From: Dehalococcoidales bacterium
GTDB lineage: Bacteria > Chloroflexota > Dehalococcoidia > Dehalococcoidales > UBA5760
Direction: 5' to 3'
Assembly: GCA_028716225.1 (NCBI GenBank)
Contig: JAQUQE010000005.1
Coordinates: 65,017 to 129,016, forward strand
Length of the DNA stretch: 64,000 nt
Shown: positions 331 to 29,579 of the stretch, in pieces
How positions within the stretch are numbered: position 1 is the first letter of the stretch
Layout of the letters: every line of letters begins with the position of its first letter
Notes under the pieces: model-generated
What the model was told of the DNA's origin: nothing
What the model saw: only the letters and a program-made list of their open reading frames with translations
The model's database searches: none
Program-made: the position numbers and the translations under genes

Positions 331-1383
331 ATGGAAGAGCGACCAAAGGTACCGCGTCTCACCGAAACCGTTCGCGGTGCCGGTTGAGCTTGTAAAATAG
401 GTCCGGGTGACCTGGCGAAAGCATTGTGTGAATTACCGCTCACTACCGATCCAAACCTGCTGGCAGGCATGGAGAAGTGTGAGGATGCTGGCGTCTATAA
501 GCTGAACGACGAGCTGGCCATAGTACAGACCCTCGATTTCTTCACCCCTATTGTCGATGACCCCTACGCTTTCGGTCAGATCGCTGCCGCCAATGCCTTA
601 AGCGACGTCTATGCTATGGGCGGCAAACCGCTGACCGCAATGAACATCGTCTGCTTTCCGGTAAAGACGATGGATATCTCGGTACTGAAGCAAATCTTAG
701 CCGGGGGGCTGGACAAAATAAGGGAGGCCGGGGTTGTCCTGGTCGGCGGCCACAGTGTAGATGACCAGGAACTGAAATACGGGCTCTCCGTTACCGGCAC
801 CATCAACCCGGCCAGAGTAGTCTTCAACAGCGGGGCCAGAGCAGGCGACCGGCTCATCCTGACCAAGCCGCTGGGCACCGGAATAATAAATACCGCCGCA
901 AAGGGTGCTATAGCCGGTAAAGAAACAATCGATCAAGCAGTACGGTGTATGTCCACCCTCAACAGAATAGCCTCGGAGCTGATGATGGAAGCCGGGGTTA
1001 ATGCCTGTACTGACGTTACCGGATTCGGCCTGCTGGGTCATGCCTGTGAGATGATTGAAGGTGCCGATGTTGGCATGGTAATCTACTCTAAGGCGGTACC
1101 GCTCCTCCCGGAAGTAAGAGAGTTTGCCGCAATGGGGCTGGTTCCGGGCGGTACATACCGCAATAAGGAGTTCCGCTCCTCTATGGTAGAGGTGGCAGCC
1201 GACACCCCGGATGACTTGTTGCTCATTCTCTTCGATGCTCAGACTTCGGGAGGATTGCTCATCTCAACACCATCCGCTCAAGCCGAAGGACTGCTCCAGA
1301 GTCTGCACGGCAGGGGTACAGCCGAGGCAGCCATTATCGGTGAGGTGATCGCCGAGCCGAAGGGCAAGATTGTAATAAGATAG
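331..1383 (+). CDS. selD: Selenide, water dikinase (selenophosphate synthetase), Sec-containing form
   Basis: ATG at 331 follows GGGGAGG (318-324). It reads MEERPKVPRLTETVRGAG-TGA-ACKIGPGDL, with an in-frame TGA at 385-387 at the catalytic Cys/Sec position of the SelD N-terminal Gly-rich loop. The frame is the same as track ORF 424..1383 (DDPYAFGQIAAANALSDVYAMGG, AIR-synthase-like fold). The track start at 424 is an internal TTG. Confidence 0.9.
399..413 (+). promoter_or_regulatory. SECIS-like hairpin downstream of the selD UGA
   Basis: AGGTC-CGGGT-GACCT (5-bp stem, loop containing GGU) starts 11 nt after the TGA at 385-387. This matches the expected position of a bacterial SECIS. Confidence 0.5.
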
Positions 1384-20936: not shown

Positions 20937-23522
20937 TCAACACTTGGTATAGCCGCAGCTCGGACAGACGAAGCAGCCCTCCTGATAGACGAGCAGGTTG
21001 CCGCAGTCCGGGCACTGTCCGGCCAGGTTCTTGACCAGCCCGTAGTCTTCCAACCTGGGCTTACCATCGTAGCCGGTGGTATGCTTCTCCAGCACGCTGG
21101 CAATGGCATCGGCACAGGAAAGAATAGATTTGCCCTGCTCCCAGGCAATGGACGGACAGCGAATGCCGCGCAGCTGTCTTACTATCGAGGCGACATCGAC
21201 ACCGGAGCGTAAGGCCAGGGAAATGAGCCGGCAGATGGCCTCAAGCTGCGCTGAGGCACAGCCTCCGGTCTTACCCAGGCTGGAGAAGACCTCACAGATA
21301 CCTTCGTCATCCGAGTTCACCGTGACATAGAGGTTACCGCAGCCTGTGGTCACTTTCTCAGTGACCCCTGAGGTCGTCTTGGTCCGCTTTCTGGGTACCA
21401 GTACCGTACTTTCGACCTTCTTAGTCTTGCCTGTAGTCAATACCTGCCCCTCCCGGCTGCCGTCACGGTAGATGGTTATCCCCTTCAGCCCTTCCTCATA
21501 GGCCATTTTATAGACACTGGCGATATCATCAACAGTAGCTTCTTTGGGAAAATTGACCGTTTTGGATACCGCATTGTGAGTAAACCTTTGAAAAGCAGCC
21601 TGCATCTTAACGTGCCAGCCGGCCTTTATGTCGTGAGCAGTAACAAAGGTCTTCTTGATATCATCCGGTACACCATCAATACCACGGAGGCTGACCCCAT
21701 CAGCCAGCTTGCGCATAAGCTCCTCGGAATAGAAGCCCCCCTTCTTGGCCACCTCCTCAAAGTACGGGTTTACTTCGATAAACTGCTCACCATCCAGAAT
21801 ATTGCGCTTGTAGCTCAAGGCAAAAAGAGGCTCGATACCGCTCGAGCAGCCGGCGATAATACTCAGTGTACCGGTGGGGGCGATGGTGGTACAGGAAGCA
21901 TTTCTTAACCTGGGCCCGGAGGGGACATCATAAATACTCTCGGCAAAGGCGGGGAAGACCCCCCGCTCCCCGGCCAGCTCCTCAGAGGCCTTTGCCGACT
22001 GCTCGGTGACAAACTGCATGATATCAGAGGCAACCTTCAGCGCCTCTTCCGAGTCATAGGGAATATCGAGCTTGATTAACATATCGGCAAAGCCCATTAC
22101 TCCGAGACCGATCTTCCTGGTCTTTTTGGTCATTTCCTCGATTGCGGGCAGGGGGAACTTGTTAACCTCAATGACATTGTCCAGAAAGCGCACTGCCGTC
22201 CTGATTATCTCCTTCAGATGGGGATAATCAATCCGGTAGGACCCGTCCTGGAGAATTACCATCCGGGACAGGTTAATCGAGCCCAGATTGCACGATTCGT
22301 AAGGGAGCAGGGGCTGTTCGCCGCAGGGGTTAGTGCTCTCAATCCTACCCAGTTGCGGGGTAGGATTGTCATCATTAATACGGTCAATGAAGACAACACC
22401 CGGGTCTCCGGTCTTCCAGGCCATACTGACCAGCTTATCGAACACTTCTTTGGCATTGAGCCTGCCGGAAACCTCTTTGGTATGCGGATTGACCAGGTTA
22501 TAGTCGGTGCCGGCCTTGACCGCCTCCATGAATTCACCGGTCACCGCCACCGAGATATTGAAGTTGGTCAGCGAGGCAAGGTCTTCCTTAGCCGTAATGA
22601 ACCTCATAATGTCGGGGTGGTCAATACTGAGGATACCCATATTCGCCCCGCGGCGCATCCCGCCCTGTTTGATAACATCAGTAGCGACATCAAAGGCACG
22701 GATAAAGGAGACCGGGCCGCTGGCGACGCCCCCGGTAGAGCCTACTCTATCATCCTCCGGCCTGAGTCTGGAAAAGGAAAAACCGGTCCCGCCGCCACTC
22801 TTATGAATCAGGGCAGTATTTTTCACGGCATCGAAGATGGACTCCATCGAGTCCTCGACGGGGAGGACGAAGCATGCCGAGAGCTGGCCCAGTTCCCGCC
22901 CGGCATTCATCAGGGTAGGGGAATTGGGCAAGAACTGGAGGCTGGTCATCAACCGGTAGAACTCCTCCTCCACTACTGTGACGTCAGCCTCAGGGTTATA
23001 GACAAGCTCAGCCGAGGCAATCGCACCGGCTACCCGGCGAAACATATCCTCCGGAGTCTCCACAACCCGGCCCTTGGCGTCTTTCTTCAAGTACCTTTTC
23101 CCCAGGACACGGAGGGCATTCTCGGTAAGACTGACCCCGCTTAACGACTTGATCTCCGGCTTAACCATATCAGTTTGCATTTCGGGTGCGACCTCCTCCT
23201 TGGGCATTGACTCTTTACCGTAATCTTCCAGTTCCTTACTGGCCAGTATTTCCTCTACCACGGCCTGAATTTCAGAACCGCTGGGCAGGCGCGGCAGCCT
23301 GTGCTGAGACCGGGGCACCAGGTCCTCCATGCCGGGCAGGGGCTGTTCCGCCCCGGAGACGGGCCTCAACTGCTCCAGACGCTCAATTACCTGCGCGGTG
23401 AGCTGCTCGACCAACCTCCGATCAGCAATGCCCATCGACTCAGCGGCAGCAAAGACAACCCGGGCCACCCGGGTACGGTCCAGCCAGTGCGTGCTCTTTC
23501 CCGTTCCATTCCTAGTATTCAT
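20937..23522 (-). CDS. nrdJ: Class II (adenosylcobalamin-dependent) ribonucleotide reductase
   Basis: RNR core motifs ([29 protein letters not shown]) and a C-terminal zinc ribbon (CPDCG...CPSCG). The ATG overlaps the nrdR stop (ATGA). About 114-130 N-terminal residues lie before the conserved core. Confidence 0.9.
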
Positions 23523-24061
23523 TTACGACGCCTCCGTTGACCTCCAGCCAGCGCCAGTGACGGCTCAACCGGAAGCAAAGGCAGTTGACTCACCGGCTGG
23601 GATGCTTTTGCCGCCTCATCTCCGATCAGAGTGTCCAGTTCCTGCTTCAAGGCAGTGATATCGGCGAACTCCCGATAGACGCTGGCAAAGCGAATGTAGG
23701 CAATATGGTCCAGCTCCCTCAAGCCCTTCATCACCATATCGCCGATAACAGCACCGGGTATCTCTGATTTACCCAGCCGGTAAAGCTCGGCTTCGATATC
23801 ATCAACAAGCTTATCGATAGCTCCGGTAGGCAGCGGCCGCTTCTCACAGGCCTTGCGGATGCCGGACATGAGCTTCTCCCGGCTAAACTCCTCACGGCGC
23901 TTGTCCTTCTTAATTACAAAGAGACTGGCCGCCTGCAACCGCTCGTAGGTGGTAAAACGAGCACTACAAGAGGAACACTGACGCCGGCGGCGGACACCAT
24001 CATCAACGTCACGGGAATCAATAACCCTGGACTCCAGATTGCCGCAATAAGGACAATTCAC
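23519..24061 (-). CDS. nrdR: Transcriptional repressor NrdR
   Basis: A GTG start at 24061, preceded by GGAGA, gives (M)NCPYCGNLESRVIDSRD (zinc ribbon) followed by an ATP-cone. The track ORF extension to 24124 runs through the promoter and operator and is rejected. Confidence 0.88.
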   Translation of the reverse strand: MNCPYCGNLESRVIDSRDVDDGVRRRRQCSSCSARFTTYERLQAASLFVIKKDKRREEFSREKLMSGIRKACEKRPLPTGAIDKLVDDIEAELYRLGKSEIPGAVIGDMVMKGLRELDHIAYIRFASVYREFADITALKQELDTLIGDEAAKASQPVSQLPLLPVEPSLALAGGQRRRRK

Positions 24062-24072
24062 GAATAATCTCC

Positions 24073-24124
24073 ACACTATATAGTGTAGGAGATATACATT
24101 ACCACAATATATAGTGTTTGTCAA
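24073..24124 (-). promoter_or_regulatory. nrdR-nrdJ promoter with two NrdR boxes
   Basis: Minus strand reads TTGACA (24124-24119), a 17-nt spacer AACACTATATATTGTGG (box 2), then TAATGT (24101-24096). A second palindrome, ACACTATATAGTGT (24086-24073), abuts the RBS. Box centres are about 31 bp apart, as in the known tandem NrdR-box arrangement. Confidence 0.65.
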
Positions 24125-24380: not shown

Positions 24381-25679
24381 CTATCTCATCGAGATATAGT
24401 CGCCGAGTGAACCGAGGTCACTCCTGCGACGCCACCACCTCATCCCCAGCGGGATGGAGATAGCGGCGGAAACAGCGATGATAACAAAAATGATAGGCCA
24501 TCTTTCCGATCCGGTTGGTGAAGACGGCAAAGTAGTATTAGTCAGTAAATCTCCTTCCTTGACGGTAAAGAACAAAGGACCCAGGCTGTTGACCTCTACT
24601 TGGTAGGTGCCTGCTGCACTCTGAGCGGTAGTAAAGGTAACCATTTGAAAGGCCCCACCGGCAAGATCGATTTTCCTCGTGTCTGCCACGACACCGTTTA
24701 TCTTGAGGGTTACGATATCGCTACCGTCTGCCTCCCCAGGATTTATCAGCAAAGCGCTGATGGTCACTGCTGCACCGGGACTGACCTCCTGGGGTGAAAC
24801 ACTCAGTGCACTTGAGGTAAAAGCAACCGGAGCTGCCGGGGAAACGGGCAGCGAAGGAGTTTCCGGATTATCCGGGGACGAATCGACCAAAGCAAGCACG
24901 GTAAAGCAAGAGAAGTGCTCGATATAGGCACTAATGGTATCGTTCGCGGCGTCAACCTCAAAATCCATCTCCGGCAAACCAACGTCAAAGTTGTCGCAAC
25001 GGGTGATTAGCAGTTCTTCCTCAGCTATCCCTTCCGGGATGTCGCCGGTATCATATCGCCAGGTCAGCATTACCGGCTGGTCAAAGGTGGTCCCCTCGGG
25101 TTTCAACTGATACGGCAACCCGATAATACTATAGTCTTCAGGTGGATCCGGTGCACGCTTAATTTCGGCAAACTCCACCTCGGTCAGCGGGTTGCCCTCT
25201 CCATCCAGAGCGGTAACTCCGTAAGGAATATTAATGCTGAGCATCCCGTCCTCAGAAACGAACTCAACGGAATCGGGGGCAAAGTAAGCGATGATACTCC
25301 AATCCCGTTGTTCAGCCTCAATGGGAAACATTTGATCGAAGATGATTTTTTCCCGCTGTGATTTCTCAACGGCCACATAGTTGACAAAGCGGTAGCCGTA
25401 TTCCGGAATCGCCTCTACATTGACGATGGTACTACTCTCAACTGAAAAATAAGCGGGGTATTTGGGCTCAGCGTCCCCGTTTATCTCTTCGGGCACAGCT
25501 TCCCCGTTTATCTCGACAGTGCCGCCGCCGCTCGGGCTGATATCCACCTTGATCGTCACCGACGAACAGCTAGGCCCTCAGCCATAAGCCGGCTTGGCGG
25601 TAAACGCCGCCGCTGCCAGCGGTACCAGCAAAGCCGCCGCCAGACAGGGCAACGCTATTCCCAAAAACCCTTTTTTCAC
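24381..25679 (-). CDS. Cell-surface protein (InlB-B-repeat-like plus CARDB-like domains, C-terminal TM anchor) with an in-frame TGA at codon 34; candidate selenoprotein or pseudogene
   Basis: GTG at 25679 follows AAGGAG and encodes the signal peptide MKKGFLGIALPCLAAALLVPLAAAAFTAKPAYG. A TGA (25580-25578) follows, and then GPSCSSVTIKVDISPSGGG... continues in the same frame as track ORF 24381..25559. The C-terminus has a TM helix and RRR stop-transfer. Confidence 0.55.
25550..25568 (-). promoter_or_regulatory. SECIS-like hairpin after the in-frame TGA of the surface-protein gene
   Basis: Minus strand TG-T-TCGTC-GGT-GACGA-T-CA begins 10 nt after the TGA. It has a 5-bp core stem plus 2 outer pairs and a GGU loop. 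The TC-GGT-GAC core resembles the selD hairpin. Confidence 0.35.
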
Positions 25680-25728
25680 CCTTTTTCACTCCTTACAGGG
25701 TATAGCTTACACCTTTTGTTTATCATCC

Positions 25729-26148
25729 TCAACCCCCCTTCCGCCCCTGCCGCTCGACCAAGTCCTCCAGAGTAATATCAGAGAGTACACCATCCACCGC
25801 TTCTTTCACCTCGGCCCACACCCGGCGGGTCACGCAGGAACCGGCACGCGAGCAGAGCATCGCATTATCAACACACTCTACCGGCGCCATCGACCCCTCC
25901 ATCACCTGCACAATATCAATAAATCTTATCTCACGTGGCGGCCGGGCCAGCATGAACCCACCTCTGGGCCCGCGAACGCTCCTGACCAGACCGGCTGTCT
26001 TGAGCCGGGTAAAGAGCTGCTCCAGATACAGGCACGATATCTGCTGCCTCGCCGAGATGTCCTTGATCAGAGTCGGACTGCCCCCAGATTGGACCGCCAG
26101 ATCAATCATCGCGCGCACTGCATAACGTCCCTTGGTCGAGAGTTTCAC
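25729..26148 (-). CDS. Rrf2-family transcriptional regulator (IscR-like, Cys ligands present)
   Basis: (V)KLSTKGRYAVRAMIDLA winged helix and the Cys cluster VECVDNAMLCSRAGSC. The probable GTG start at 26148 lies inside the longer track ORF. Divergent from selA. Confidence 0.8.
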   Translation of the reverse strand: MKLSTKGRYAVRAMIDLAVQSGGSPTLIKDISARQQISCLYLEQLFTRLKTAGLVRSVRGPRGGFMLARPPREIRFIDIVQVMEGSMAPVECVDNAMLCSRAGSCVTRRVWAEVKEAVDGVLSDITLEDLVERQGRKGG

Positions 26149-26291
26149 AGCTCCAGCCGGCCTGTTCTGAATTTTATTATCACAATACTCGTAAATATAG
26201 CGCAACAAAAAGGTCTTGTCAAATATTAGTCCAGGAGCATCTAAAACACCTTTGAAAAGAGGGCGATATGTATTAGAATAGAGCGGAGAAT

Positions 26292-27683
26292 ATGGACAAG
26301 GAGTTTCGTCACCTGCCCGGAGTGGACAAGCTAACCTCCAACGAGCGCTTGAGGCAGCTCGGGGAGGAGCTTTCCCACACGTCCTTTATGGAGTTGATAC
26401 GCAACCACCTTGAGCAAACCCGGCTGGATATCGCTGCCGGTAGCCCCTGCCCTTCTCTTGACGATATAGTAGAAGCTATTGTCGCCCGGGGCTGCGCCAT
26501 GACAAAGCCGGGGCTGCGCCCGGTGGTCAACGCTACCGGCATCATACTTCACACCAACCTGGGCCGTGCTCCTCTCAGCGAGGAGACTGCCGCCGCGATG
26601 AACACGGTCGCCAGCACCTACTCTAACCTGGAGTTCGACCTGGACAGCGGCCGGCGGGGGTCGCGCAACAGCCACATCGAGCAGTCGCTGTGCCGGCTCA
26701 CCGGAGCCGAGGCGGCACTGGTGGTAAACAATAATACCTCAGCGGTGCTGCTCGCTCTCAGTGCGCTGACCAGAAGGAAAGAGGTGCTCGTTTCCCGCGG
26801 CCAGGCAGTACAGATCGGCGGCGGCTTTCGCATCCCCGACGTAATGCGCCAGAGCGGGGCCAGGCTGGTCGAGGTGGGCACCACCAACTGCACCTATGCT
26901 GTCGATTATGAACAGGCAATCAACCCGCGGACAGCGGCGCTGATGCGAATCCACCTGAGCAACTTCAGGATGATGGGCTTCACCCATTCGGTCACTCTCG
27001 AGGAACTGGTAGCGCTGGGCAAAGACCACAACCTCCCCGTACTCGATGACCTCGGCAGCGGATGTCTGCTGGATACCACCCAGTTCGGTCTTGACCCGGA
27101 GCCAACGGTACAGCAGAGCATTGCCGCTGGTGTCGACCTGGTCTTCTTCTCTGCTGATAAGCTCCTCGGTGGTCCTCAAGCCGGCATCGTCACCGGTCGG
27201 AAAGAGCTGATAGAAAAATTGAAGAAACACCCGCTGGCGCGTGCGGTACGGATCGATAAGATAGGACTGGCCGGTCTGGCGGCCACCCTGGTTCACTACC
27301 TGAAAGGTGAAGCGATAACCAAGATCCCGGTCTGGCGTATGATTGCCGCTCCTCTGGACGGAATTGAGCAGCGGGCCGTAACCTGGGCTGGACCACTCAA
27401 GAGACTGGCCGGGGTGATCGCCGGAGAAACGATGGTCGGAGGCGGCAGTCTGCCCGGGGCCACTCTACCGACCAGGCTGGTTGCTATCGGAGAAGAGGGA
27501 GGTAAAAGTAAGCGCAATATGGCGCAAGTCTTAAGCCAGCGGCTGCGCCAGCGAGAGATACCGGTCATCGGGCGAATTAGCGAAAATCTCCTCTTGCTCG
27601 ACCCCCGCTCCGTACTTCCCGGAGAAGACAGGATTGTGCTCAAAGCCCTGCAAGATGCCGCTGCCAGCCTTAAGGACAGGTGA
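26292..27683 (+). CDS. selA: L-seryl-tRNA(Sec) selenium transferase
   Basis: 463 aa with a SelA-like N-terminus (LPGVDKL...), [13 protein letters not shown], and the PLP-lysine region [13 protein letters not shown]. Confidence 0.9.
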
Positions 27684-27710: not shown

Positions 27711-29579
27711 GTGTTTGTAATCGGTACTGCGGGACACATAGACCACGGTAAATCGGTACTGGTGCGCGCCCTGACCGGCATAGACCCGGACCGGCTGCGC
27801 GAGGAGAAGGAACGGGGTATGACCATTGACCTGGGCTTCGCCTGGCTGAAGCTGCCCGATGGTCAGGAGGTTGGTATTGTTGATGTCCCGGGTCACGAAC
27901 GGCTGATTAAGAATATGCTGGCCGGAGTGGGCGGCATCGACCTGGCCCTGCTTATCATCGATGCCGGTGAAGGAGTGATGCCACAGACCAGGGAGCACCT
28001 GGCTATCCTGAACATACTAGGTATAGAGAGAGGAATCGCCGTTCTCACCAAAAAGGACCTGGTAGATGATGAGCGGCTGGCCCTGGCAAGGGGGGAAGTC
28101 ACCAGGCTGCTCGCTCCGACCACCCTTGCCCGGTCCCCGATTGTTGCCGTCTCGGCCCTGACCGGAGAGGGCCTCGCTGATCTGACCTCGGCTATCGGCA
28201 AGCTCCTCGGCTCCACTCCACTCAGGAAGGATATCGGCCGTCCCCGGCTTCCCATAGACCGCGTCTTTACTATTGCCGGCTCCGGCACCATCGTCACCGG
28301 AACACTGATTGACGGCTCGCTCAGCACAGGACAGGAGGTAGAACTGATCCCCGCCGGGCTCAGGTCACGGATACGAAGGCTGCAGACGCATAAGACTTCT
28401 GTCGAAACGGCCGCTCCGGGGAGCAGGGTCGGCGTCAACCTGACCGGTATCGCCGCCACCGAACCACAGCGCGGCGATGTACTCACCATACCCGGCTGGC
28501 TCTCACCCACCACGATGCTCTCGGTTAAGCTGTGTCTGCTACCCCATCTTCAGCACCCCCTGTCACACGGCACCACGGTGAACTTTTATGCCGGGTCCAC
28601 CCAGGCTGAATCCAGAGTCCGCCTGCTGGAAAAAGACGAACTCAAGCCCGGTGAGACGGGCTGGGCACAGCTATTACTGAATAAGCCGGTGGCTCTGGTT
28701 AAGGGCGACCGTTTTATTATCCGCTCGCCGGAGGCTACTCTTGGCGGTGGCGAAGTTCTCGAGCCTCATACCAGACGGCACCGCCGACTGCACCCGAACG
28801 TCATTGAGAACCTCAGGCGTAGAGCGCAGGGAACCCCCGAAGAGATGATTATGGCAATACTGGAGGGTAAACCGCTCAAGATGTCCGAACTCTCCACACA
28901 GAGCGGCCTAACTGTCAGCGAGCTTAGCCCGGCAGTAGCCTCCCTTATCGAGCAGAGTAAGATAGTCAGGATAGGCAGGGGGGAAAGCGAGCTCCTTCTG
29001 ACTGCAACCGGCTGGGAGAATCTGGCCGGCCGGGTGACCGCCATCCTTAAGGACTATCACCTCAGGTTCCCCTCCCGCCCGGGGATGCCCAGGGCAGAGT
29101 TGAGCAGCCGGCTCAAGATGACGGCACCTAGTCCGGCGATTATAAAAAAGCTTCTTGACGATGGCAACGTCATCGAGGATAGCGCTGCTATCCGTCTTGC
29201 CACCCATCACGTTCAGCTCACCAAGACGCAGCAGGCGCAGATAGACACCTTCCTCAAGTCACTGGCGGAGAGTCCTTACGCCCCACCCGGCGGCCTCATA
29301 CCGGAAGCGGACCTGCTCAAACTGATCGTGGCCCGCAACCAGGTGATCAAGATAAGCGAGGAGGTGGTCTTCTCCCGTCAAGCCTATAATGAAATGGTAG
29401 CCGGAATCACCTCACACCTGAAGGAAGCGGGAAGCGTGACTGTAGCTGAAGTACGGGATATGTTTAAGACCAGCCGCAAGTATGCCCTGGCTCTGCTGGA
29501 ATACCTGGATGGGGCGAAGGTAACACGCCGCCTCGGCGACCGTAGAGTTCTCTATCGGGAATCAGGTACCGGACATTGA
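27711..29579 (+). CDS. selB: Selenocysteine-specific translation elongation factor
   Basis: GTPase motifs [16 protein letters not shown] and TKKD, with long C-terminal winged-helix repeats; 622 aa. Directly downstream of selA. Confidence 0.9.

Follow-up and report, generated by a model that had tools for sequence, protein, structure and literature searches.

Candidate exported selenoproteins of Dehalococcoidales with selenocysteine predicted at the signal-peptide junction of a membrane-anchored surface protein

In the 64,000-nucleotide (64-kb) stretch of Dehalococcoidales contig JAQUQE010000005.1 analysed here as a whole (the window), the minus-strand open reading frame (ORF) at 24381–25559, encoding 392 amino acids (aa), is very probably the 3' part of a 432-codon gene (25679–24381), whose UGA codon 34 is read as selenocysteine (Sec, U). 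The in-frame TGA is, judging from comparison of orthologues, almost certainly a conserved Sec codon, and the identification of the hairpin downstream of it as a selenocysteine insertion sequence (SECIS), matching the SelB-type geometry of selD and of Escherichia coli fdhF, is strongly supported at the sequence level. The gene would thus represent a new family of bacterial SECIS-dependent selenoproteins with an unusual placement of Sec. The first-pass annotation of the window had proposed an unannotated, exported selenoprotein; the elements it listed, that is, AAGGAG-N9-GTG, a signal peptide, an in-frame TGA at 25580–25578, and the continuation of the frame as GPSCSSVTIKVD... into the 392-aa ORF, are all read on the minus strand. 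The proposal is supported by the conserved TGA, by Cys-containing forms, and by a covarying hairpin, export and selenium incorporation both being predictions.

A protein search with the read-through protein as the query gave 43 homologues. The close ones (about 38) are 328–392 aa long, cover at most 91% of the query, and have no signal peptide as annotated. The DNA was examined for 41 full-length loci (designated L), all from Dehalococcoidales or Dehalococcoidia metagenome-assembled genomes (MAGs) and metagenomes. In 39 of the 41 the gene frame extends upstream across a single stop into a conserved signal peptide, and this junction stop is TGA in 39/39 loci (about 31 of them distinct), never TAA or TAG. 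Five Sec-form genes beyond these 39 loci also have TGA, namely L084, the second (tandem) copy in L091, two genes in L125, and the very divergent L128. The Sec-form orthologues come from independent assemblies, and the proteins are 37–100% identical.

Four homologous genes in three loci (L099, L100, and two in L126) have Cys at the aligned position, with matching flanks; hence, the question posed in the first-pass annotation, whether orthologues carry TGA or Cys at this codon, finds both answers, TGA in all 39 loci and TGC or TGT in these four genes. L099 and L100 (35–38% identity) are uninterrupted ORFs with a TGC Cys codon at the aligned residue (…SAG-C-PCE…). An exhaustive search with a profile, covering 1.84 billion representative proteins, further identified P0114, from locus L126, which holds two tandem Cys-form genes (TGT and TGC), …FTAVPAEAG-C-PCEGGGG… and …LTTVPVEAG-C-CGGAPP…. 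The L126 flanks, FTAVPAEAG-C and TTVPVEAG-C, agree with FTAKP[AV]EAG-U of the Sec forms, for a consensus of A[VK]P[AV]EAG-[CU]. The criteria for new selenoprotein families in the Haft preprint are at least 10 examples, 100% TGA, and similarity across U (10.1101/2022.07.06.499078); all three are seen in the present family.

The hairpin UG-U-UCGUC-GGU-GACGA-U-CA, noted earlier after the TGA, is indeed found at 25568–25550, with the core at 25565–25553. An unfitted MAFFT alignment of 28 sequences shows a 7-bp helix with 92.1% of cells paired, double-sided changes in 4 of the 7 pairs, and a covariation score of 0.295, against 0.159±0.020 in shuffles (0/500 shuffles reach 0.295); slid-partner controls are 12–65% paired, while a structure-aware (model-fitted) alignment of 31 sequences is 94.6% paired. 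The hairpin is therefore conserved among orthologues with compensatory changes, a point that the first-pass annotation had left to be checked. Single-sequence folding energies are not significantly better than those of shuffles, and for that reason we relied on covariation. Stems in the family have 4–8 bp (7–8 bp in most loci, 5 bp in the window), with variants including GGUCGUC/GACGACC, CGGCGUC/GACGCCG, GGACGCC/GGCGUCC, and GGUUGCC/GGCAAUC; the loop sequence is GGU or AGGUNC. With the U of UGA as nucleotide 1, the G-U of the loop lies at nucleotides 22–23 in the window, and in the family ranges over nucleotides 21–28: at 23–24 in 10 loci, at 26–27 in 11, and at 21–23 in the window and two other loci.

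The comparison with selD made in the first-pass annotation also stands. Its hairpin (UAGGUC-CGGGU-GACCUG, 398–414) follows a TGA at 385–387 in the Sec context …VRGAG-U-ACKIGPGD…, with the loop G-U at nucleotides 23–24. The mechanical ORF list shows selD only after its TGA (424–1383). In E. coli fdhF, the stem-loop lies 11 nucleotides from the UGA, and loop G23/U24 together with bulged U17 are the conserved SelB determinants (PMC8659212). Both fdhF and selD resemble the present gene in having an in-frame UGA, a stem-loop from about 10–12 nucleotides downstream, and a loop G-U at approximately nucleotides 23–24; they differ in that the present stems are perfect, the spacing classes are one codon apart, the protein does not have an oxidoreductase fold, and Sec is at the signal-peptide junction and not in a buried active site. 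Of the window's TGAs that lie in frame between long ORFs, those of selD and of the present site are the only ones followed by a stem of at least 5 bp and a G-initiated loop from nucleotides 20–21. The covariance-model scan suggested earlier was run with a family-specific model (R1), which finds only the present site in the window. R1 does not pick up selD there, because the model includes family-specific flanks, and is useful for alignment only.

A hairpin that is a mere by-product of a conserved peptide is ruled out by synonymous-site identity and by its absence from the Cys forms. The synonymous-codon identity is 0.74 in the linker/hairpin codons versus 0.56–0.60 in five other gene regions, while amino-acid identity is lowest in this region (0.45 versus 0.51–0.56 elsewhere in the gene), and compensatory stem changes are nonsynonymous, e.g., G-S-S-G-P-T-T to G-T-P-G-T-A-S (SS..TT to TP..AS). 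No such hairpin is present in the Cys forms (the L099, L100, and L126 genes examined).

As stated in the first-pass annotation, TGA is otherwise a normal stop in the window: it terminates 12 of 40 long ORFs (approximately 30%), including selA, selB, nrdJ, and nrdR. The genetic code is therefore standard, and a reassigned code with TGA as a sense codon is ruled out. The presence of selA, selB, and selD is confirmed (Table 1); these genes and the existence of Cys homologues are features shared with other bacterial genes that have an intragenic SECIS. Wherever the contig reaches, selA (with or without selB) is found just beyond an Rrf2-family regulator gene, in at least 13 loci.

Several lines indicate one gene on both sides of the TGA. 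The amino-acid identity of the signal peptide is 0.557 (27 orthologues), as high as that of the mature domains (0.51–0.53 downstream); orthologue N-termini align as M/V-K-[KRN]-x-L..., 33–40 codons ahead of the TGA. The signal peptide is always in frame with the downstream ORF, linker insertions and deletions are all of whole codons, and purifying selection acts on the coding sequence both before and after the TGA. The 392-aa ORF matches exactly a 'hypothetical protein' deposited at NCBI for a Dehalococcoidales MAG; its annotated GTG start (25557–25559, minus strand) combines part of the SECIS loop with the first 3'-arm base (G-GU-G). Called starts of the truncated orthologues vary widely (MTTKIITVD, VDVSP, MNGDVD, MTGRKV…), and therefore there is no real conserved start downstream of the TGA. 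Distant relatives share a body of ZU5-like and CARDB domains and a transmembrane (TM) helix, have other N-terminal domains, and all carry ordinary uninterrupted signal peptides; hence, the superfamily is extracytoplasmic, and the present subfamily obtains its signal peptide only via TGA read-through.

Some observations weigh against this interpretation. No tRNA-Sec gene (selC) is found within the 64-kb window. Family hairpins agree with E. coli fdhF in loop and spacing, but a bulged U equivalent to U17 is absent. The window hairpin is the weakest in the family, with a 5-bp core, a U·U mismatch, and a folding z of −0.73; it scores 25.8 bits in the multi-locus covariance search, the second lowest of 31 matches (28.5 bits in a window-only search with filters off). 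Rfam gives no match at gathering thresholds across the window, and only chance-level matches around the site. The helix is degenerate in L009, and L024 and L035 lack the loop G-U. A Cys near Sec is missing from about half of the Sec forms, which weakens a simple selenenylsulfide redox model; the ArsEFG-like gene context described below belongs to paralogues in other genomes, not to the window copy; and the Cys-form loci have neither that neighbourhood nor the Rrf2/selAB one. Automated hairpin picking settled on another stem in L001 and, for L009, L024, and L035, gave none that had a loop G-U. The orthologue at L009:319–368 (U-HHNVGAPVV…) has a degenerate helix (GGGGCGCC…GACGACC) with a GUU loop; this copy may be decaying or use an alternative fold.

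Hairpin-stimulated read-through inserting a standard amino acid (Trp, Cys, or Arg) in place of Sec seems very unlikely. A structured RNA 3' of a stop can promote read-through, and the inserted amino acid is not readable from sequence alone; however, the stop is exclusively TGA, homologues have Cys at this position, the hairpin geometry and loop G-U match selD and the published SelB contacts (PMC8659212), and the linkage to selA/selB is tight.

A different fate of the Sec residue, also quite improbable, is that it replaces a lipobox Cys and is Se-diacylglycerylated by Lgt, leaving a lipid-modified N-terminus after cleavage by signal peptidase II. Sec directly follows ...A-G and precedes a Gly/Ser-rich tether, as in typical lipoproteins; judged by eye, Cys forms L099/L100 (…MASAG-C) fit the lipobox pattern, [LVI][ASTVI][GAS]-C immediately behind an uncharged h-region; and the ArsF-domain protein of the paralogue operon is a canonical lipoprotein (LLLTAG-C). 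Against this, K, P, or E occupy positions −3 to −6 both in the Sec forms (AKPAYG-U, AKPVEAG-U) and in the Cys forms of L126 (AVPAEAG-C), contrary to the consensus as applied by eye, and a C-terminal TM anchor is already present. Cleavage after A-Y-G, A-A-G, V-A-G, or V-E-A, in agreement with the −3/−1 rule, would make Sec the mature residue 1 or 2.

It is highly improbable that the locus comprises two genes, a 33-aa membrane peptide with a genuine TGA stop and a leaderless 392-aa protein starting from GTG 25559 or nearby, perhaps translationally coupled. Gene callers do predict such a split, including 35–57-aa upstream ORFs in L004, L005, L124, and one further contig, and a GTG is present 21 nucleotides downstream of the TGA; however, both ORFs share the frame in every locus despite the variable linker length, the Cys forms are single uninterrupted ORFs, and a leaderless form would give the wrong topology for a superfamily whose proteins with β-sandwich domains, CARDB, and a C-terminal TM helix all carry signal peptides. 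A start at GTG 25559, which according to the first-pass annotation would refute the selenoprotein if peptides showed it, is argued against by its position inside the conserved hairpin loop and by the absence of a conserved start codon among orthologues. A pseudogene (recent nonsense mutation) or an assembly or base-call error in this one assembly, although annotations at NCBI and in every other source show nothing but the 392-aa downstream ORF, can be dismissed as having a negligible probability, because the same junction TGA, with purifying selection on both sides of it, occurs in dozens of independent metagenomes and MAGs.

Taken with the Sec reading of UGA, the expected course of synthesis would be as follows. 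SelB with Sec-tRNA would recognise a short hairpin 9–12 nucleotides downstream of the UGA, with the loop G-U approximately 22–27 nucleotides from it; the Sec-type signal peptide would export the protein, and cleavage at A-x-G or V-E-A would leave Sec at the very N-terminus; Sec would then be carried on a flexible Gly/Ser tether, often with a vicinal Cys, ahead of three β-sandwich domains and a C-terminal membrane anchor. This architecture is observed, and the corresponding topology is predicted. The first-pass annotation had also proposed a Sec/Cys pair near the mature N-terminus. It is present in the window (U-G-P-S-C), but is not universal: patterns in the Sec forms are U-C, U-G-C, and U-x3-C, with C-C or C-P-C in the Cys forms, and given the Sec forms that have no neighbouring Cys, a simple intramolecular selenenylsulfide cycle cannot be general.

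Table 1. Features of the candidate selenoprotein gene and of linked genes in the window
Feature	Position	Strand	Remarks
Shine–Dalgarno-like AAGGAG	25689..25694	minus	9 nt before start codon; read from sequence
GTG, true start codon (predicted)	25677..25679	minus	ATG or GTG at equivalent position in orthologues
Signal peptide MKKGFLGIALPCLAAALLVPLAAAAFTAKPAYG	25581..25679	minus	Basic n-region, hydrophobic h-region of ~20 residues, conserved FTAKPAYG c-region
UGA, proposed selenocysteine codon 34	25578..25580	minus	TGA in 39/39 orthologue loci, Cys in 4 homologous genes
Variable linker after Sec, G-P-S-C-S-S	25560..25577	minus	Gly/Ser-rich and of variable length in orthologues; holds optional partner Cys
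Putative SECIS hairpin UG-U-UCGUC-GGU-GACGA-U-CA	25550..25568	minus	Core stem 25565–25561 / 25557–25553, loop GGU 25560–25558
Domain 1, β-sandwich, weakly Flg_new_2 (InlB B-repeat-like)	25275..25559	minus	
Domain 2, ZU5-like β-sandwich	24888..25271	minus	Best-conserved part of superfamily; model pLDDT 89 and Foldseek
H-F-S motif (H215-F216-S217 of 392-aa ORF)	24909..24917	minus	Candidate autoproteolytic site
Domain 3, CARDB-like / Fn3-like β-sandwich	24561..24818	minus	Pfam, Foldseek, and PDB profile matches
C-terminal transmembrane helix WPIIFVIIAVSAAISIPLGMRWWRRR, then Arg-rich stop-transfer	24420..24503	minus	AlphaFold2 helix, residues 353–380
Conserved cytoplasmic tail SDLGSLGDYISMR and TAG stop	24381..24419	minus	Conserved in selAB-linked subgroup
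Rrf2-family regulator, C-x7-C-x5-C motif	25729..26208	minus	Directly upstream, same strand; Pfam Rrf2 E=5e-41, NCBIfam rrf2_super
selA	26292–27683	plus	Divergent from Rrf2 gene
selB	27711–29579	plus	Divergent from Rrf2 gene
selD, itself a selenoprotein gene	332..1383	plus	TGA 385–387, SECIS 398–414; same-genome positive control

The AlphaFold2 model of the 392-aa protein (predicted local distance difference test, pLDDT, 78.7) shows three β-sandwich domains (residues 1–95, 97–224, and 248–333), followed by the TM helix. The extracytoplasmic-type domains and TM anchor named in the first-pass annotation are borne out by this helix and by the only Pfam matches, weak ones to Flg_new_2 and CARDB (the latter with E=2e-4, just below the cut-off). 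Foldseek against PDB finds Fn3-like accessory domains, with GH3 Fn3-like domains for domain 3, and a profile search of PDB sequences returns generic Fn3/CARDB-like matches only. The middle domain, modelled alone (pLDDT 89, predicted template-modelling score 0.81), has ZU5 domains as all of its top 17 PDB matches (probability 0.98–1.0, template-modelling score 0.50–0.63), including ankyrin, ZO-1, and, lower down, UNC5b, with GAIN domains further down; in a paralogous lipoprotein, Pfam ZU5 is matched with E=0.011, below the cut-off. Based on the model, we assign the middle domain as ZU5-like with a His-Phe-Ser (HFS) motif, an addition to the earlier annotation.

The best-conserved motif of the superfamily, AYI[DE]-H-F-S-[TC]-F, is located at the turn before the last β-strand, and nearly all members keep H-[FL]-[ST] at the HFS position. 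Autocleavage takes place at HF/S in PIDD, immediately behind the ZU5 domains, and at SF/S in CARD8/NLRP1 (PMC3210808). The present domain resembles ZU5/FIIND/GAIN-type domains in its fold and in having H-[FL]-[ST] with the same position and chemistry as the HF/S sites (PMC3210808); it differs in being prokaryotic, extracytoplasmic, and without a UPA or death domain. By this analogy, HFS in a ZU5-fold domain suggests a prokaryotic extracytoplasmic self-cleaving ZU5/GPS-like module, and HFS is a candidate cleavage site, as a prediction only. The family profile matches 38,328 representative proteins at E≤1e-3; many of the matches combine ZU5-like and CARDB modules with other N-terminal domains, and they include many giant proteins (2,000–7,000 aa) with 20–45 Flg_new_2-like repeats. 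This superfamily of surface proteins is very large and essentially unannotated. The cytoplasmic tail of the window protein, RRRSDLGSLGDYISMR (24384–24419, minus strand), is strongly conserved in the selAB-linked subgroup, whereas members of the ArsEFG-linked subgroup end in short RRRSY-type tails.

No gene accompanies the Sec-form genes more constantly than that of the Rrf2 regulator; in 25 of the 39 searched loci, which cover the whole identity range, it directly precedes the Sec-form gene in the same orientation. The regulator is IscR/CymR-like, below those (equivalog) cut-offs, has three clustered cysteines (ECVDNAMLCSRAGSCV), and is a candidate redox or Fe-S sensor controlling the Sec-form genes. 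A second group of paralogues, in L005, L091, L092, and L125, and partially in L014 and L015, sits behind an ArsEFG-like operon. This operon encodes an ArsR-type helix-turn-helix (HTH) protein, followed by an ArsP_1 permease (SO_0444/SaoE-like, below cut-off); four small proteins that resemble thioredoxin and belong to the ArsE family (102.9 bits, the NCBIfam cut-off being 62); the lipoprotein mentioned above, with a ZU5-like domain (…EHFSKYAVL…) and an ArsF-family CxxC domain (92 versus 60); and an ArsG-family membrane protein resembling CcdA/DsbD (268.8 versus 200). Neither a second paralogue nor an ArsEFG-like operon is found in the 64-kb window.

In L125 (1–7074), the operon ends with two tandem Sec-form genes, with RtcB and Archease downstream on the other strand; its third ArsE-like gene (L125:1890–2153) has a degenerate active site, PTCSGG instead of CxxC, and the other three keep PPCARC, PPCPGC, and PGCARC. 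Two to four paralogous Sec-form genes are found in the genomes CAZYRA01 (L088, and two in L091), DAOWDD01 (L089, L092, and L098), and DIFA01 (L087 and L095), typically one linked to selAB/Rrf2 and one or two linked to ArsEFG.

A possible role, which we put forward tentatively, is that the tethered selenol forms a surface-exposed redox-active or soft-metal(loid)-binding centre. For the paralogues, a relay could run from cytoplasmic thioredoxin (ArsE) via a membrane conduit (ArsG/CcdA-like) to the extracytoplasmic CxxC lipoprotein (ArsF domain), which would keep the selenol reduced; the same ZU5-like domain in the ArsF-domain lipoprotein suggests a docking partner. For the window copy, which is genetically linked to selA/selB, the neighbouring Cys-rich Rrf2 protein is the probable regulator. 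A more elaborate proposal, which we regard as doubtful, is that Sec at mature residue 1 or 2 is displayed on its tether before an adhesin-like stalk with a self-cleaving ZU5/GPS-like domain, the selenol either catching soft metal(loid)s or organoarsenicals as an extracellular hook or forming the terminal, electron-donating tip of the ArsE–ArsG–ArsF relay. With a self-cleaving domain in the stalk, only non-covalent contacts would retain the Sec-bearing ectodomain, which could then be released, and the tight linkage to selA/selB and to a Rrf2 regulator of the Fe-S type would be compatible with a part in selenium sensing or scavenging.

Searches of known families give no equivalent. NCBIfam has no match to the protein at E≤1, and none of the 87 families in the 2022 prokaryotic selenoprotein table fits by name, domain, or motif, this comparison leaving the domain-less 'hypothetical' families outside sequence comparison (PMC9312934). 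Among the nine deep-Sep families and the SAO/HgcA families none fits, the 111-family list of BSepDB being outside the comparison. No homologue returned by searches of 5.8 billion non-redundant sequences and of 1.84 billion cluster representatives of about 15 billion is annotated through the UGA, and a literature search for selenoproteins linked to CcdA gave nothing relevant. Apart from the families on the BSepDB list, the family of exported, membrane-anchored Dehalococcoidales selenoproteins is thus apparently undescribed so far.

Partial similarities to known systems are observed. The predicted DUF1573 UGC selenoprotein (PMC9312934, Table 1) shares U-G-C with L003, L006, L013, L017, and others. 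Pfam DUF1573 (PF07610) gives no match at E≤1, and hence the present protein is not a member of that family; compared by the Pfam model and description, its domain set is larger (Flg_new_2-like, ZU5-like, CARDB-like, and TM). In the SAO system (SaoB etc.), adjacent Cys/Sec (CU) motifs are proposed to bind metals (10.1101/2022.07.06.499078). Selenoproteins of that system also bear signal peptides and have database entries split at the UGA (10.1101/2022.07.06.499078), and the permease and small thioredoxin-like proteins of the paralogue operon match SaoE and SaoT below threshold; however, the Sec proteins are not homologous, all matches are below curated cut-offs, the hosts are Clostridia and not Dehalococcoidales, and Sec in the present family is predicted at the mature N-terminus.

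ArsEFG is reported to give resistance to aromatic organoarsenicals (Chen, Zhang & Rosen 2019, as cited in PMC9144182). As far as the ArsE/ArsF/ArsG set is outlined in PMC9144182, the paralogue operon resembles it in passing NCBIfam cut-offs for all three proteins and in having the ArsR-type HTH protein and ArsP_1 permease; it differs in that ArsF is part of a fusion with a lipoprotein signal and a ZU5-like domain, in the four ArsE paralogues, in that a Sec surface protein is no component described in that outline, and in that the window copy lies outside such an operon. The ArsE/ArsF/ArsG-like link, the shared ZU5-like HFS domain, and the natural Cys forms make the pathway hypothesis testable with few constructs.

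Mammalian thioredoxin reductase has a C-terminal Gly-Cys-Sec-Gly tail. As an analogy only, the present proteins likewise have Sec beside Cys on a flexible end, a possible mobile redox shuttle, with G-U-C-G in L001 and one L091 paralogue and G-U-C-S in L024; here the end would be N-terminal and extracellular, no flavoprotein is attached, and half of the members have no Cys. To our knowledge, nearly all known selenoproteins are oxidoreductases with buried Sec; a Sec predicted at the outermost end of a non-enzymatic surface scaffold anchored in the membrane suggests selenol chemistry outside the cell, either redox or the capture of metal(loid)s.

All retrieved database copies appear to be truncated at false starts, and the exported protein is consequently shown as cytoplasmic-looking; for the family, a GTG in the SECIS loop, such as the annotated start in the window, constitutes a systematic annotation trap. 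The correction would mend dozens of Dehalococcoidales entries and add a family to catalogues of the bacterial selenoproteome. The host lineage is environmentally important, largely uncultured, and already noted for large selenoproteomes: BSepDB, a database of 111 families, records Dehalococcoidia MAGs with 46–49 selenoprotein genes.

Directly downstream of the candidate selenoprotein gene, at 20937–24124 on the minus strand, are nrdR and a class II ribonucleotide reductase gene, the product of the latter having a C-terminal Zn-ribbon-like CxxC…CxxC. This synteny is seen in the closest orthologue loci L001, L006, L086, and L088, not in L003, and the linkage is probably incidental.

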